In this document: in pieces, positions 1 through 44,899 of the stretch
Position numbering within the stretch: position 1 is the stretch's first letter
How the letters are laid out: every line of letters starts with the position of its first letter
DNA from: a virus
Lineage: Duplodnaviria; Caudoviricetes
Direction: 5' to 3' (one strand)
Virus record (IMG/VR): IMGVR_UViG_3300036791_000660
Span: 1 to 56,956 of that record
DNA: 56,956 nt
Notes under the pieces: generated by a model
The model's input: the letters and a program-made list of their open reading frames with translations, nothing else
What the model was told of the DNA's origin: nothing
The model's database searches: none
Translations under genes and position numbers: made by a program

Positions 1-545
1 CTAGCCCACCCCCGGCACGACACGGCAGGCGCGGCTCGGACTGGCGCGACAAGGATGGCGAGGAACGCGGGGCCGGGTCAGGCAACGCATGGTCTGGCGT
101 GGCAGGCCTGTCGAGTCTTGGCATGCCGAGACTTCTCCGGGCGTGACTTCGCTGCGCGAGGCGGGGCCGGGCATGGCAGGCGTGGCATGGTTTTGCGGGG
201 TTGGGCACGACGAGCCGAGCCAAGGCATGGCTGGTGCGGCTAGGCGAGGAAGCCAAGGGATGGCCAGCAGCGGCGCGGTGAGGCCGGCCACGGCACGGCA
301 GGTGCGGCGGGGCAACCCAAGGCGCGACGGGGGAGGCTTGGCTTCCCACGGTCCGGCACGGTGAGGCAGGCAAGTCGAGGCAAGACACGATGTGACATGG
401 CACGATGCGGTTCGGCAGGCGCGGCTAGGAGTTCGCGACGAGGTAGGCAAGGCGGGGCTGGGTGCGGCAGGTCTGGCGCGTCGAGGCGAGGGTCGCGGGG
501 CGTGGCGGGGCAAGGCACGCAATCACATGGCACGGCAGGCACGAC
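1..545 (+). ncRNA. Array of degenerate GGY-NN pentamer-repeat units (putative multi-guide RNA precursor), truncated by the window start
   Basis: 5-nt periodicity (ggcgc ggctc ggact ggcgc gacaa...). Units are delimited by GGCAGG at 24, 101, 175, 297, 365, 414, 466 and 534 and by GGCTGG at 229. No credible ORF. The repeat is seen directly; RNA status is inferred. Confidence 0.8.
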
Positions 546-548
546 ATC

Positions 549-597
549 TGCCAGTTACTGTCAGGCACTACTGACGGTCTATTGCCAACTTCTGTCA
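549..597. promoter_or_regulatory. Two TGCCA-N5-TGTCA operator-like sites (549-563, 583-597)
   Basis: The motif recurs at about ten intergenic or promoter-proximal positions in the window. Confidence 0.65.
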
Positions 598-610
598 ATA
601 AGCCTATATG
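582..610 (+). promoter_or_regulatory. sigma70-type promoter
   Basis: TTGCCA-17 nt-TATATG upstream of the Gly-rich gene. Confidence 0.65.
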
Positions 611-665
611 CCAAGCTCGCCACGCACAGGCGTTGGCGGTGAACAACCTTTCAGGAGACCTTGTG

Positions 666-1457
666 ATGTTGCGGCGTAAATTGTTGATGGCCGTCCTCGG
701 AGTCGTGGCGGCTGGTGGAGCGATGACGGCGGCCGATGCCCTCGCCAAAGGTGGTGGCGGCGGTTCCGGTGGCGGTGGTTCGGGCGGCGGTGGCGGCTCG
801 GGCGGTGGTGGTTCTGGCGGAGGAGGTTCCGGTGGCGGATCAGGAGGAGGTGGCGGCGGCTCCGGCGGAGGCGGGGGTTCCGGCGGTGGTAGCGGCAGCG
901 GGGGCGGTGGCTCCGGTGGTGGCTCGGGTGGCGGCGGAAGCGGCTCGGGCGGCGGCAGCGGCGGAGGCGGCGGATCGGGCGGTGGCGGCTCGGGCGGTGG
1001 CTCTGGCGGCGGTGGTGGCGGCTCGGGCGGAGGCTCGGGCGGTGGAGGCGGCGGCTCGGGCAGCGGCGGCGGAGGCGGCTCAGGCGGCGGAGGGTCGGGC
1101 GGCGGCAGCGGCGGCGGTGGTTCGGGCGGCGGTGGTAGCGGTTCTGGTGGCGGTGGGTCTGGCGGCGGCGGTGGCGGCTCGGGTGGCGGCTCTGGCGGCA
1201 GCGGTGGCGGTTCTGGTGGTGGCGGTTCCGGTGGCGGTGGCGGTGGCGGATCGGGCTCCGGTGGCGGCGATGCTGGCGGTGGCGGTGGCGGCGGTGCTTC
1301 TGGCGGTGGGAGTGCTGGTGGCGGGTCGAGTGCTGGGTCTAGCTCCGGGTCTGGGGCTGGCGCTGGTGCCGGGGCCTCTGCCTCGGGCGCCTCGGGTCCG
1401 TCAGGAGCCGACGGCGTCAACAACGTGAACGAGTTCTTCCGTTCGCGTCGTCGGTAG
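666..1457 (+). CDS. Exported Gly/Ser-rich low-complexity protein
   Basis: AGGAG RBS. N-terminal MLRRKLLMAVLGVVAAGG...ALA signal peptide, then a long GGGGS-type tract with varied wobble bases. Confidence 0.7.
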   Translation: MLRRKLLMAVLGVVAAGGAMTAADALAKGGGGGSGGGGSGGGGGSGGGGSGGGGSGGGSGGGGGGSGGGGGSGGGSGSGGGGSGGGSGGGGSGSGGGSGGGGGSGGGGSGGGSGGGGGGSGGGSGGGGGGSGSGGGGGSGGGGSGGGSGGGGSGGGGSGSGGGGSGGGGGGSGGGSGGSGGGSGGGGSGGGGGGGSGSGGGDAGGGGGGGASGGGSAGGGSSAGSSSGSGAGAGAGASASGASGPSGADGVNNVNEFFRSRRR

Positions 1458-32845: not shown

Positions 32846-34534
32846 CTAGCCCTGCACCACGGAGATTTGCGAAGTCGAGGTGAAGAAGTACGACTGCGGA
32901 TCGCCGAAGATCAGGAAGGTGCCGGCGCTGGGCAGCGTGCCGATGCCGTTGATCGACACCGCGAAGGTCAGCACCGAGATGAAGGTCGGGCCGAGCACGT
33001 TCTCGACGGCGGTCTGGAACACGTCCTCCATCACCAAGACGTTGAGCGGCTGGCCGACGATCACCGAGTTCACGTAGTCGGCGAGCGCCGGGGCGGCGAG
33101 TTGGGCGATGGCGGCGGCCGAGATGAAGTTCGGCGAGTCGGTGTTCCACGTCACCGTCATCGTCACCGTCTGCTGCGGCGGCACGACGAAGTTCACCACG
33201 TAGGTGTCGGGGTAGTCGGTGATCGTGACCGCGAGGTTGCGGTTGTTGGGCGTCACCACGCCGCCCGACACGTAGGCCGGCAGGCCGGTCGAATCGAAGT
33301 TGGCGATGCCCGCCTGAAGCTGGCCGAGCACCGTCTCGGCGCCGGGATTGGTGGCCAGCGGGAAAGTGATGGTGGTGCCCGACGCGGTGGTCGCCACGAA
33401 GGTGCCGTTCCAGCCGGCCGGCGTCGAGCCCGCCAGCGCGAAGGTCGAGCCCGGCGTCACGTTGTGCGCCACCAAGGTGGTCGCCGTGGCGACGCCAGCG
33501 GCCCACGCCAGCGACGCCAACTGGTTGGCCGGATAGGCCGTGCCAAGCTGGAAAGTCTTCTCCGAGGGCACCGCGAGGATGGCGTGGTTGCCGTTGAAGC
33601 CCACCGGGTTGACGCCGGCGAGCGTGATCGGCTGGCCGACCAGATAGCCGTGGTTGAGGTCGGTCGTGACCACCGCCGGGTTGGCGTTGGTGATGTTGGT
33701 GACGCTGACCGTCGAGCCGACCAAGTTCGAGATGTCGAACAGCGCAGTGTAGATCGCGTTGGCGACATCGTAGGGATCGCCGCCGCCCACGATGATCATC
33801 CAGCCACCGGCCGGGCCGGGCTGCTGCTGGATTCCAATCAGGCGCGATTGGACTCCGGGCACGTTCTCCAACAGCGTGCGCAGGTAGCGCGGCATGCCCT
33901 GTGAGGCCGCCAGCCCCGCCTGAAGCACCCGCGCCCGGTACATGCTCTCGGTCTCGGCGTCGGTGCCGGGGACGCCGGCCTCGGGATTAACGACGGTCAG
34001 CGTGAAGCCGGTCGGCGGCGGCGTGATCAGTTGCGTCACCACCCCCGGCGGCACGCTGAAAGAGCCGGCCTGCGTGGCGAGGGCGAACAGCGGATCGCTC
34101 TGGCCGGACTGGCCGATGATGCCGCCATCCCGCAGCGCATATTGGAAGTTGCCGTCGGAGACGATGAAGCCCTTGCCGATCACGAAGCCCGGCAGGCCGG
34201 AGAACACCACCAAGACGCTGGTGTTGCTGGCCGTACCGGGAACTACGCCATAGACCTCGCCAAGCTCGGCGAGGATGAAGGCGTTGCAGCCGAACGGCGT
34301 CAGCGAGTTGACGGTCTCGACGCGCGCCAGATCGGCCAGCACCAGCGACTGCACGTCGGTGCTGACGATGTCCTCGACCAGCGAGCCCGGCAAATTTCCG
34401 CTGAAACCCGGATTCGTCGCCGACACGCCGGACACCACCTCCTCGCGCAGCGTGAGAGGCGGCGTCGGCACCAGCCCGGCCGGGCCGATGACAGTCGGAA
34501 GTTCGCTCCCCGATGGCGGGATCGGATCGGCCAT
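32846..34534 (-). CDS. Baseplate J-like protein
   Basis: NLPGSLVEDI, AETESMYRARVLQA and GGGDPYDVA.AI motifs; synteny. Confidence 0.8.
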   Translation of the reverse strand: MADPIPPSGSELPTVIGPAGLVPTPPLTLREEVVSGVSATNPGFSGNLPGSLVEDIVSTDVQSLVLADLARVETVNSLTPFGCNAFILAELGEVYGVVPGTASNTSVLVVFSGLPGFVIGKGFIVSDGNFQYALRDGGIIGQSGQSDPLFALATQAGSFSVPPGVVTQLITPPPTGFTLTVVNPEAGVPGTDAETESMYRARVLQAGLAASQGMPRYLRTLLENVPGVQSRLIGIQQQPGPAGGWMIIVGGGDPYDVANAIYTALFDISNLVGSTVSVTNITNANPAVVTTDLNHGYLVGQPITLAGVNPVGFNGNHAILAVPSEKTFQLGTAYPANQLASLAWAAGVATATTLVAHNVTPGSTFALAGSTPAGWNGTFVATTASGTTITFPLATNPGAETVLGQLQAGIANFDSTGLPAYVSGGVVTPNNRNLAVTITDYPDTYVVNFVVPPQQTVTMTVTWNTDSPNFISAAAIAQLAAPALADYVNSVIVGQPLNVLVMEDVFQTAVENVLGPTFISVLTFAVSINGIGTLPSAGTFLIFGDPQSYFFTSTSQISVVQG

Positions 34535-34569
34535 GGACAATACCTGTCAATTCGTGTTTGGTGGGTGAA

Positions 34570-34651
34570 GCCGCGCCACGGCAAGTCCCGGCGGGGCTAG
34601 GCACGTCGAGGCAAGGTCTGGCCCGGCGGGGTTCGGCAAGGCACGGCAGGC
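34570..34651 (+). ncRNA. Stand-alone GGY-NN repeat cassette A (putative guide RNA)
   Basis: 15 in-phase pentamers ending GGCAGGC; intergenic and antisense to the late genes. Confidence 0.8.
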
Positions 34652-38100: not shown

Positions 38101-39972
38101 TCACAGCGGGAACGGTGGCGGCGCGAACGCCGCCTGTTCGAGCGACGCCACGACCGAGCCGCCAGTGGCATCGTTGATCGTGACGCCGGCACCGCCGGCC
38201 GGCGCGCCGCCGGCGTACATGTTGCCGCCGAGCGCACGCTCGCGCTGGGCCACCATCTGGGCGACGCTGACGCCGGATACCTTATCGGCCCAGCGTGACG
38301 ACACGCTGTAGGGCTGGCCGCTAGCCCACATCGAGAACACGTCGCGGCTGGTGTGATACTTGTTGAGATATTCGTTCACCATGGCGGACGCGATCTGGTC
38401 CTGCATGCCGGGGTTCGACAGGTACTCTTGCGGCGACACGGTGCGGCCGAGCACGCGGCGGCTCATGGTGGCCAGCGTGCCCGGCATCAGTTGATAGGCG
38501 CCGAGCGCACGGCCTTGCCCCGGCACGTTCGCGCCGAGGATGCCGTAGTTGCCGCTGCTCTCGAACTGCTTGATGACCTGAAGAATCTTCTCCGGGCTGG
38601 CGACGATCTCGCCCTCGTGGACGCGGGCGTCCATGTCGTGCGGCACCACGCCGCCTTCTTGGTAGGCCCCGGTCGTGCCGCCCGACGAACTCGACGGCTG
38701 ACCCGACGCCAGCCAGTCCTGATAGGGCATCGGATTGATGCCGAGCTTCATCGACTCCCGCTGGTAGGCGTCATAGCGCCGCTTGTTGATGCGGTCGCGC
38801 TGCCAGCCCGGCATCTCCTCGGTGGTCGGCATGAAGCCGGGATTGCTGCGCAGCAGGTCGGGCGTGCTGGTGGGCGCGGCCGGCGGCGTGCCCGGCGCAC
38901 CCGTGAACCGCGCGATGAACTCGTAGATCGCCTTGCCGGCCTCAAACAGGCCCTTGGCGAACTTCTCGATGTAGTCCGGCAGCTTCTCCATGAACTCCTT
39001 GAACTCGGGCCGCTGCACCCACTCGCCGATCTTCTTCACGAACACCTCGGCGAAATGCTCCAGCGCCGGCAGGAGCGGCGTCAGGCCCTCGGCGATCAGC
39101 TTCCGCAACCGGCCGGTCACATCTTCCAGCGCGTCCTTGAACTCGCTCCACGCCTTCTCGGCGCCCTCGCGGATGCCGTACTTGCCGACGCCCGCCGTGA
39201 CGCTCTGTTCCTGCTTGGTGATGTCGGCGTCGCTCATGCCGACGGCGCGCTGGACATCCTGCGTGCTCAGCACGCCGCTCAGCCCCATCGCCTCCAGTTG
39301 CCCGGCCCACATGCCCTTGTTGACGCCGCCGAACTTGGACTTCAGCGCCCGGTTGAGGCCCCGGATGTTCTGGAACGCGCCGGCCTCGGGATTGAGCCCG
39401 AGCGCCCGCATGCCGATGTAGGCCGGGCTGCCGATGTCGGCCTGCGCGCCCGCGAAGGCGTCCATCAGCCCTTCGACGTTCATGCCGGTGCCGCCCAAGC
39501 CGATGCGCAGTGACTCGATCTGGCCGGGCGCCATGCCGAGCCCGGCGCGCGTCGCCCGCGTGCCCCGGATCGCATCGGCGAGCTTGTCGAGGCCAAATAG
39601 CAGGCCGCCGCCACCAACCGCACCCGAGATGCCGGCCCACCGCATGAAGCCGAGGCTGGCGTCCTTGATGTGGATCGCGAAGCTCTTGGCGTGCTCGCGC
39701 AGCTTGCCCCACGACACCACCGAATCGCGGGCGTGCACCGCCACGTCCTTGTGGTGGGCGACGATCTGGCGGCCGAGGCTGGCCTGCGCCGTCATCGCCG
39801 CCGTCATCCTCGACATATTTTCCATCGCCGCGCGCTGCTCGGCGGTGACGTTCTTCCAGTCCTTCGGCGTCTGCGCCAGCATCTTGGAGTATTTGGCGAA
39901 GGCGTCTTGGAAGCGCTTGAACTGTTGCTCGTTGACTTCAATGTCAACGACTGATTTTGCGTTTACTGCCAC
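38101..39972 (-). CDS. Tape measure protein with a C-terminal lysozyme-like domain
   Basis: GTG start 5 nt after GGAGG; helical body; FESSGNY..ALGAYQLMP.T..QD motif. Confidence 0.8.
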   Translation of the reverse strand: MAVNAKSVVDIEVNEQQFKRFQDAFAKYSKMLAQTPKDWKNVTAEQRAAMENMSRMTAAMTAQASLGRQIVAHHKDVAVHARDSVVSWGKLREHAKSFAIHIKDASLGFMRWAGISGAVGGGGLLFGLDKLADAIRGTRATRAGLGMAPGQIESLRIGLGGTGMNVEGLMDAFAGAQADIGSPAYIGMRALGLNPEAGAFQNIRGLNRALKSKFGGVNKGMWAGQLEAMGLSGVLSTQDVQRAVGMSDADITKQEQSVTAGVGKYGIREGAEKAWSEFKDALEDVTGRLRKLIAEGLTPLLPALEHFAEVFVKKIGEWVQRPEFKEFMEKLPDYIEKFAKGLFEAGKAIYEFIARFTGAPGTPPAAPTSTPDLLRSNPGFMPTTEEMPGWQRDRINKRRYDAYQRESMKLGINPMPYQDWLASGQPSSSSGGTTGAYQEGGVVPHDMDARVHEGEIVASPEKILQVIKQFESSGNYGILGANVPGQGRALGAYQLMPGTLATMSRRVLGRTVSPQEYLSNPGMQDQIASAMVNEYLNKYHTSRDVFSMWASGQPYSVSSRWADKVSGVSVAQMVAQRERALGGNMYAGGAPAGGAGVTINDATGGSVVASLEQAAFAPPPFPL

Positions 39973-39992
39973 GACACCCTCCATTGAGGGCA

Positions 39993-40094
39993 GAGGATGG
40001 CAGCCGTGAAGCCACCATCCTCCCTTGCCGTGCCTCGACATGCCTCAACACGACACGCCCTGCATTGCAGCGCCTTGCCACGTCGCGCCATGTC
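39993..40094 (-). ncRNA. Stand-alone GGY-NN repeat cassette B (putative guide RNA) with 3' hairpin
   Basis: 14 in-phase pentamers (40094 down to 40025), then a GAGGATGG...CCATCCTC hairpin; TTGACA at 40129-40124. Confidence 0.8.
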
Positions 40095-40255
40095 TGATGC
40101 CAGAGACCGCATTGGACAGGAGGTGTCAATCATGGCCTACCCCCGACGTAGCAGTGCCACGAGATGGCGGTGCCGGTAGTCGTGCGCGGTGCGCCACTCG
40201 AACTCGGGCGTGCGGTCGGCGAACACGTCCACGAAGCCCTCGGTGACGATCCAGT

Positions 40256-44720: not shown

Positions 44721-44768
44721 CACTGCACCTCATTGACAAATGTTGGCGGATGCGGTCAGTCGTCGGCA

Positions 44769-44899
44769 GCCACGGCCAGTCGCGGGATGGCAAGGCCTGT
44801 CACGGCAGCGCTAGGCAGCGCCCGTCGTGGCTCGCCACGGCAAGGCGAGTCGGGGAAGGCACGGCACGGGGAGGGACGGCTCAGCGATGGGCCGTCCCT
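44769..44899 (+). ncRNA. Stand-alone GGY-NN repeat cassette C (putative guide RNA) with 3' hairpin
   Basis: 17 in-phase pentamers (44769-44853), a short tail, and an AGGGACGGC...GCCGTCCCT hairpin; TTGACA at 44733. Confidence 0.8.

Follow-up and report, generated by a model that had tools for sequence, protein, structure and literature searches.

We identified an array of guide-like repeats at the left end of a phage genome record (IMG/VR record IMGVR_UViG_3300036791_000660; the whole record of 56,956 bases was analysed and is referred to below as the window). One guide of this array, unit 5 (304..367, plus strand), matches the type I restriction-modification (R-M) gene hsdM far beyond chance. 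The repeats are of the type found in the guide RNAs (vrRNAs) of VIPR systems. We consider it probable that positions 1–545 are a VIPR-type guide array in which unit 5 directs the Vipr protein to hsdM, and in which neighbouring guides likewise silence a helicase operon and a WYL regulator. The phage may use RNA guides to silence host defence genes, because one of its guides spells the most conserved motif of HsdM.

As described in main-text passages of the original preprints, VIPR systems combine a RAMP-like Vipr protein of about 20 kDa with vrRNAs of 9–16 YNNGG repeats, and 664 such loci have been published (10.64898/2026.04.26.720920). Only the NN pairs determine which double-stranded DNA is targeted, with one base, mostly the codon wobble base, skipped between consecutive pairs (10.64898/2026.04.26.720920). 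Vipr protomers form a coat on the RNA, in which each constant GGY triplet is held and the NN pairs are presented (10.64898/2026.04.26.720920, 10.64898/2026.04.26.720927). In such systems the constant part of the repeats is conserved while the NN pairs are hypervariable, an invariable structured tail stands at the 3' end of the repeat tract, the vrRNA is processed after transcription, and the vipr gene beside the vrRNAs is usually accompanied by a vap gene. Binding represses transcription, and natural targets are called at an NN identity of at least 80% (10.64898/2026.04.26.720920).

The hsdM match of unit 5

Unit 5 is made of 13 units (GCggc GGggc AAccc AAggc GCgac GGgg GAggc TTggc TTccc ACggt CCggc ACggt GAggc), which give the NN string GC GG AA AA GC GG GA TT TT AC CC AC GA and, by skip-one-base decoding, AGKKAGEFFTPTE. 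This NN string had been reported for positions 301–364 in an earlier note made from the DNA letters alone, and it stands as given there, with our own parse placing the 13 units at 304–367. In the same note the NN pairs were read as codon positions 1 and 2 with the constant triplet skipped, which is the published VIPR 1-nucleotide (nt) skip rule with the skip at the wobble base. The proposal that the unit spells the HsdM motif, which would have been in difficulty had no hsdM gene matched most dinucleotides in phase, is borne out by many hsdM genes that match 22–25 of the 26 NN bases in phase.

The 9-unit core of the guide (18 specified bases) occurs at no fewer than 120 places in genome_contigs, a collection of 185,579 species genomes, where about 17 are expected for 1.2e12 positions. 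We scored 118 of these at least 120 core matches over all 13 units, leaving out two at locus edges. The score was 25 of the 26 NN bases at 36 places, 24 at 17, 23 at 21, 22 at 34, 21 at six and 20 at two, and the scores 19 and 18 occurred once each. At 110 of the 118 scored places the match lies in codon phase in an hsdM context, where an open frame reads ...FASDAGKKAGEFFTPxEVS... and continues to the D-P of motif I; the context was called by a heuristic, namely an open frame with G[ED]FFTP and then motif I. Pfam identified HsdM_N and N6_Mtase in five of five target genes tested (E 1e-75 to 1e-100), and a sixth target gene was assigned by PADLOC to the type I methyltransferases (5e-134). The matched site, AGKKAGEFFTPxE, lies where the N6_Mtase domain begins (in one locus, L238, at codon 179 of 508), with the motif I D-P about 20 residues downstream.

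Scoring unit 5 on the 120 hsdM loci is circular, since these loci were picked by the guide's own core, and it was not counted as support. A sample of 401 alphaproteobacterial genomes taken without selection includes 18 that contain a place with at most three mismatches of 26 (best 24/26). The chance expectation is 0.04, and the reversed pattern, searched as a control, gave 0.

The match stops on both sides at a 4-nt unit, which we refer to as a punctuation unit: aGGT at 300..303 (+) on the left and aGGC at 368..371 (+) on the right. Upstream of the AG, hsdM reads F-A-S-D where the array, compared by eye, has CG, AC, AC and the aGGT unit. After the E, hsdM continues with V-S where the array has the aGGC unit, AA and GA. 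Within the guide lies an irregular 4-nt unit, gggg (329..332, +), which corresponds to a Gly codon of the target; it stands for exactly one codon because the flanks on both sides fit hsdM in a single frame.

The guide has no self-target, as its best score in the phage's own genome is 17/26, the same as that of shuffled guides. The core pattern has six matches in 2.9 million viral contigs, two of them in hsdM, compared with the at least 120 in bacterial genomes. Because there is no self site and only two of the six viral-contig core matches are hsdM, the guide fits cellular hsdM genes and not phages. Bacteroidota, Actinomycetota and Alphaproteobacteria are among the groups whose hsdM genes match at 22–25/26; as the wobble base is skipped, one guide fits hsdM of many lineages at 85–96%. 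The hope that a gapped search of hsdM genes would name the host was not fulfilled, the 22–25/26 matches being spread over many phyla. The suggestion that the guide would be aimed at a host defence gene, and not at another phage, gains support from the scarcity of viral-contig matches and from two further guides that match defence genes.

The array and its other guides

The long array (1..545, +) is of the staggered vrRNA type and is cut off at the left end of the record. It is non-coding, shows a lag-5 autocorrelation of 0.50 compared with 0.25–0.27 in three control stretches, and parses into about 112 units, each consisting of two variable bases and a constant triplet. In 57 of the 112 units this triplet reads GGC or GGT, most of the others being G-N-C variants; 16 units are irregular. 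The same unit type is found in the vrRNAs beside the vipr-vap1 genes of phage SUSP1 (KT454805), where GGT-NN arrays flank genes of 195 and 146 amino acids (aa). These two genes fall inside the vipr-vap1 deletion interval given in 10.64898/2026.10.15.759431.

A 4-nt unit, aGGC or aGGT, recurs at nine places in the array (27, 104, 178, 300, 368, 417, 445, 469 and 537). The guides between these units are 13–14 pentanucleotide units long and no tail separates them; the long array holds at least nine guides. Tandem NN/GGY repeats with 9–16 units per guide, by which a VIPR array is recognized, are thus present. The aGGY units are taken as guide boundaries because every array target match that we found ends exactly at them. 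Two internal 4-nt units, at 329–332 and 493–496, belong to two independent guides, and each corresponds to exactly one target codon. The aGGY units, unlike these two, coincide with the ends of matches, which suggests that there are two classes of short unit, one a shortened scaffold and the other punctuation.

Several other identities of the array were considered. A coding sequence was rejected as there is no long frame and no 3-nt period, and a known RNA family or transfer RNA was rejected with 0 matches from Rfam and 0 from ARAGORN. A TRAP-like protein-binding RNA, a G-quadruplex, a pac site and iterons were dropped once the NN strings had been decoded to real genes.

Five guides of the long array (31, 108, 182, 304 and 473, unit 5 included) were tested alike. 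The guide at 108..177 (+), with 14 units, matches LEFIEFRLFWEG[HR]V, a stretch close to the N-terminus of WYL-domain proteins that regulate defence operons. Four of 101 alphaproteobacterial genomes contain matches with at most three mismatches, at five places in all (control 0), and the guide scores 25/28 in three loci where shuffled guides reach at most 20. The sites extend from codons 6–16 to approximately codons 20–30 of the regulators, and a WYL domain was identified in three of three genes tested.

The guide at 473..536 (+) has 13 units, one of them a 4-nt unit (tCGC) that was treated as a free codon. It matches LADDPGAGKTIMA, and the sites are helicase motif I of HmaA/DrmD-like SNF2 defence helicases. 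Matches with at most three mismatches occur in 7 of 101 alphaproteobacterial genomes (control 0), with a score of 22/24. PADLOC identifies the target genes as HmaA in three of three cases (E 1e-296, 1e-301 and 1e-142), and they also score as DrmD and BrxH; Pfam finds SNF2-rel_dom, ResIII and Helicase_C in them. The flanks of the tCGC unit align in one frame, as is the case for gggg in unit 5. The 12-unit pattern of this guide has 0 exact matches in viral_contigs (IMG/VR).

Guides 304, 473 and 108 all reach an ungapped NN identity of at least 80% under the 1-nt skip rule, and in five fetched defence loci they are the only guides that exceed shuffled controls. The reversed-pattern controls gave 0 in every genome searched. 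The skipped base falls at the codon wobble position, and the frame translations (AGKKAGEFFTP, LADDPGAGKTIMA and LEFIEFRLFWEG) are located within long open reading frames (ORFs). All five decoded guides, three from the array and two solitary ones described below, have the sense of the coding strand, and could therefore pair with DNA and not with mRNA. Guides 255 and 372 gave nothing above shuffles in local databases.

In one alphaproteobacterial genome (G075), a WYL gene lies directly upstream of hmaA with an overlap of a few bases, and the WYL and hmaA sites are about 1.2 kb apart on one strand. This genome (loci L237, L238 and L239) contains sites for all three decoded defence guides, in two WYL genes, hmaA and hsdM (23/26). 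Among the first 101 genomes sampled, the WYL, helicase and hsdM guides match 4, 7 and 6 genomes, respectively, and the triple overlap in G075 is unexpected.

The likeness to hsdM could in principle be due to chance, or the array could be a non-functional relic or a repeat at the DNA level without guide function. The degenerate scaffold with its 4-nt units would fit such an origin, as would the lack of an exact target for unit 5 and of an effector in the record. We nevertheless regard it as very improbable given the 18 genomes matched where 0.04 are expected, with 0/401 for the reversed control, and given three guides whose matches to defence genes run from end to end of the guide and stop at punctuation units. 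In addition, a fourth guide scores 22/28 on the tape-measure gene beside it, above the shuffle maximum of 19.

Solitary vrRNA genes and the search for an effector

Four short arrays of the same kind are located in intergenic gaps of the structural module of the phage, and three of them end in a G+C-rich hairpin. The closest relative (G001; capsid 86% identical) has zero arrays, and at the positions of the window's solitary vrRNA genes its own genes directly adjoin each other. The gene at 34558..34651 (+; 18 units) resembles the adjacent baseplate-wedge gene as well as the G001 allele. Its best whole-guide self match is 23/36 on the baseplate gene, compared with a shuffle maximum of 22. Counted by eye, 13 units match the phage's own baseplate gene at 23/26 and 11 units match the G001 allele at 21/22, and in the alignment an 11-unit stretch of this allele matches the guide at 20/22 or better. 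In the gene at 40017..40124 (−), a hairpin comes after a 14-unit guide (40086 down to 40017) whose match is at the start of the tape-measure gene. This guide scores 22/28 on the phage's own tape-measure gene, at 39969(−), and 23/28 in a relative (L008).

The gene at 44743..44899 (+; about 27 units) ends in a 3' hairpin, GGGACGGC...GCCGTCCC, which is shared by the gene at 49543..49646 (+; about 16 units) and from which the hairpin of the 40086(−) gene differs. No target above shuffles was found for guide 44743(+) in local databases, and no convincing target for guide 49543(+), the sole match there being a partial one in a further locus (L073). A ATTGACAAATG box is present upstream of two solitary genes, without a matching −10.

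The genes at 34558(+) and 40017–40124(−) are each directly upstream of the gene that they resemble, 32846–34540(−) and 38101–40041(−), respectively. The phage's own alleles differ from the solitary guides at a few units, for example with a Ser TCA codon where the guide has AG, and F-S-G where the guide has Y-T-D/E. The combination of solitary gene and neighbour looks like a guide linked to a resistant allele, a layout that is reminiscent of free-standing homing endonucleases and of marker exclusion. Judged from their sequences, the solitary vrRNA genes appear to behave as the preprints describe for conflict between phages.

As solitary guides 34558 and 40086 match phage structural genes, it is natural to ask whether the true targets of the array are defence modules on competing prophages, islands or plasmids, with the guides serving in warfare between elements and not in protection from the host. 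Type I R-M, Hma and WYL-regulated systems are often found in mobile defence islands, and two of the hsdM matches are on viral contigs. The natural targets published for VIPR comprise satellites, prophages and other VIPR systems, to which types III and V add viruses (10.64898/2026.04.26.720920). However, the core gives just the two hsdM matches in 2.9 million viral contigs compared with at least 110 in bacterial genomes. Moreover, silencing the cargo of a rival would bring no evident advantage unless that cargo acts on this phage, which amounts to the same function. We consider this explanation quite unlikely.

The record is of the linear class, with a CheckV completeness estimate of 100% and a G+C content of 66%. 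Its minus strand encodes tail sheath, baseplate, tape measure and DUF2184-type capsid genes, as in a myovirus-like soil phage, and its plus strand encodes recombination and other early genes. The relatives of the capsid protein are all metagenome proteins. No homologue of the capsid protein was found in the five target-bearing genomes checked, G075 among them, and the target-bearing loci have a G+C content of 60–65% compared with 66% for the phage, which gives nothing firm on the host. One soil run (X1) covers 97% of the window. A second soil metagenome (run X2) contains a 254-nt contig over window positions 137–390 (guides 3–5) with five differences.

Sequence and profile searches for a Vipr effector in the window gave best results of E 0.38 with tblastn, E 0.44 with blastp using the SUSP1 195-aa protein, and a probability of 4% with hhalign. 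A family profile of 116 sequences run with hmmsearch --max against all six-frame ORFs of at least 50 aa had a best E of 0.33. Pfam and PHROGs gave no RAMP-like match on 38 window proteins, and among the window genes absent from array-less relatives none looked like a RAMP protein, although a fold-level search was not made.

The record is incomplete at its left end, as a 177-nt contig from X1 that lies on window positions 1–146 reaches a further 31 nt to the left of position 1. With the array cut by the start of the record and the DNA continuing on that side, the absence of vipr is not established, and the gene may lie just off the record. A 40-mer of window positions 31–70 had 0 matches in the metagenome and viral collections, and a search for related loci with the exonuclease returned one distant relative only. 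Among 80 capsid relatives, a single locus contains arrays. This locus (L070 1–1600, equal to L208 440–2500; IMGVR_UViG_3300015371_000016) is VIPR-like, with four NN-CGC/CTC arrays around proteins of 195 and 173 aa; its constant triplet differs from GGY. Similarity between its 195-aa protein and that of SUSP1 covers a C-terminal glycine-rich loop, GLGRGRPANAGSNGRF (blastp E 1e-5), and at least 396 metagenome proteins belong to the family of the former. Queries with either 195-aa protein or with the profile of this family gave no match in the window. The effector for the array is either encoded to the left of the record's end or borrowed from another element.

Orphan vrRNAs without a Vipr of their own might load the Vipr of a prophage, satellite or co-infecting phage. 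They would then serve chiefly as decoys, luring a rival's effector off the phage and onto conserved host genes, and any silencing of defence would be incidental or absent. In favour of this, the searches of the record gave no vipr, and the closest relative lacks intergenic DNA at the positions of the four solitary vrRNA genes. Solo vrRNAs have been described both in VIPR-null phages and in satellites, which use theirs to redirect Vipr to host decoy sites (10.64898/2026.10.15.759431). However, the decoys reported in that work are multi-copy REP elements (10.64898/2026.10.15.759431), whereas the sites here are in single-copy defence genes and lie in or before the first genes of operons. As the record breaks off inside the array, the lack of vipr is also less telling than it would otherwise be. 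We judge the decoy explanation to be rather unlikely.

Several further features of the window were observed. The sequence that follows the long array (546..625, +) contains a small hairpin in a fold prediction (GUCAG..CUGAC) and is possibly a tail or terminator; a consensus terminator was not called there. Directly after the array, the ORF 664–1457(+) encodes a signal-peptide-like N-terminus, after which Gly/Ser repeats make up about 230 residues. A TTGCCA-N17-TATAT box stands in front of this ORF and recurs at 1517–1544. A protein of 1,614 aa encoded at 50808–55652(−) has no Pfam match and, by eye, a ParB-like DGHHR motif; conserved at 30–41% among the relatives, it is perhaps a polyvalent protein or a large protein of the virion. 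Between the gene for this protein and the scaffold and capsid genes, 49649–50623(−) encodes a 324-aa protein with an N-terminal NUDIX domain.

Proposed role and comparison with known systems

In the mechanism that we propose, the unit 5 guide would bring the Vipr effector to the template strand inside hsdM and block transcription of hsdM and of the genes downstream. Guides 473 and 108 would do the same for the HmaA/DrmD-like helicase operon and its WYL regulator. The array would thereby act as an RNA-programmed anti-defence battery, and in infected cells or lysogens it would shut down the operons for type I R-M and for Hma-type defence.

A number of points weigh against this proposal. Enzyme already in the cell when the phage DNA arrives is beyond the reach of transcriptional silencing, and any benefit would have to follow later, for instance once a lysogen has formed, where a defence attacks DNA during its replication, or when related phages infect the same cell. 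An exact scan with the full 13-unit pattern of unit 5 covered genome_contigs, metagenome_contigs (JGI) and viral_contigs, and found no 26/26 target in any of the three. The NN pair GG taken from the 4-nt unit gggg is a choice of parse. Two of the five guides tested had no match (guide 182 in 0/101 genomes, guide 31 in 0/61). A vipr homologue was not found in the 56,956-base record by sequence or profile, and a structure-based search was not made. No consensus (sigma-70) promoter was called beside the solitary genes between 34,558 and 49,646, and the stretch upstream of the main array is off the record. Finally, the scaffold is degenerate, with GGY constants in only 9 of the 13 units of unit 5 and one unit of 4 nt, and perturbing GGY abolished silencing in SUSP1 (10.64898/2026.04.26.720920).

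A wider generalization, which we put forward tentatively and at somewhat less than even likelihood, is that VIPR arrays are a broad-spectrum RNA-programmed anti-defence weapon, with guides against wobble-skipped, protein-level signatures of conserved defence motifs. Examples of such motifs would be the HsdM motif before the S-adenosylmethionine (SAM) pocket, motif I of Hma/DISARM/BREX-type SNF2 helicases, and the N-terminal DNA-binding helix of WYL regulators at the head of defence operons. If this is the case, one guide would silence a gene family across many hosts, and synonymous changes would give no escape. The skip-wobble code would then read a conserved amino-acid motif directly in DNA, a use that goes beyond escape-proofing. 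VIPR was described in 2026 as a weapon of virus against virus, and its use would extend to host immunity genes, as the first RNA-guided transcriptional anti-defence system against restriction-modification and helicase-based defences. Decoding vrRNA arrays against catalogues of defence genes could show which host defences matter to uncultured phages, and the natural guides may serve as models for guides that silence defence systems broadly in strains used in the laboratory.

RNA-guided and protein-based weapons of phages against host defence have precedents. The CRISPR-Cas system of Vibrio phage ICP1 targets the host PLE defence island with contiguous spacers and cleaves that specific island; the likeness to the present array is that of an RNA-guided phage weapon directed at a host defence element. 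Ocr, ArdA and DarA/B are protein anti-restriction factors, of which Ocr and ArdA neutralise type I restriction as DNA-mimic proteins that act on the enzyme at once. In contrast to ICP1, Ocr and ArdA, the gapped guide here would read a conserved protein motif in DNA and act on transcription.

The type of system is known from three 2026 preprints, and host-defence targeting appears, on the strength of the sequence matches, to be the new element. Our literature search found no report of RNA-guided, phage-encoded transcriptional repression of hsdM or other defence genes. Host defence genes are not among the VIPR targets reported in main-text passages of the preprints, although the supplementary target tables (data S3, S4) may bear on this.

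The array shares with the VIPR systems described in those passages its tandem NN+GGY pentanucleotides, its guides of 13–14 units (published, 9–16), the wobble skip on coding DNA, and its location on a phage. Another shared feature is that the guides have no match in their own phage genome, with the exception of the two solitary guides that resemble neighbouring genes. It differs in that no vipr or vap gene was found in this record, in that the scaffold is more degenerate (57/112 GGY), and in that three guides match host defence genes, namely hsdM, an HmaA-like helicase and a WYL regulator. As in the published staggered vrRNA arrays (fig. S18 of 10.64898/2026.04.26.720920), there is no intervening tail and the end of one guide marks the start of the next; by analogy, the 1-nt overlap published for those arrays would correspond to the aGGY unit here.

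The solitary genes are closest to the published solo vrRNAs of VIPR-null phages. In neither is a vipr detected in the same genome, with the proviso that the present record is incomplete at its left end, and in both the self scores are below those of the relatives' alleles. The published VIPR-null cases are SUSP1-like enterobacterial phages with one or two solo vrRNAs and a deleted vipr-vap1 locus, and their reported targets are vipr, vrRNAs, satellites and REP decoys. The phage described here differs from these in having an array of at least nine guides together with four solitary genes inside the structural module of a soil phage with a G+C content of 66%.

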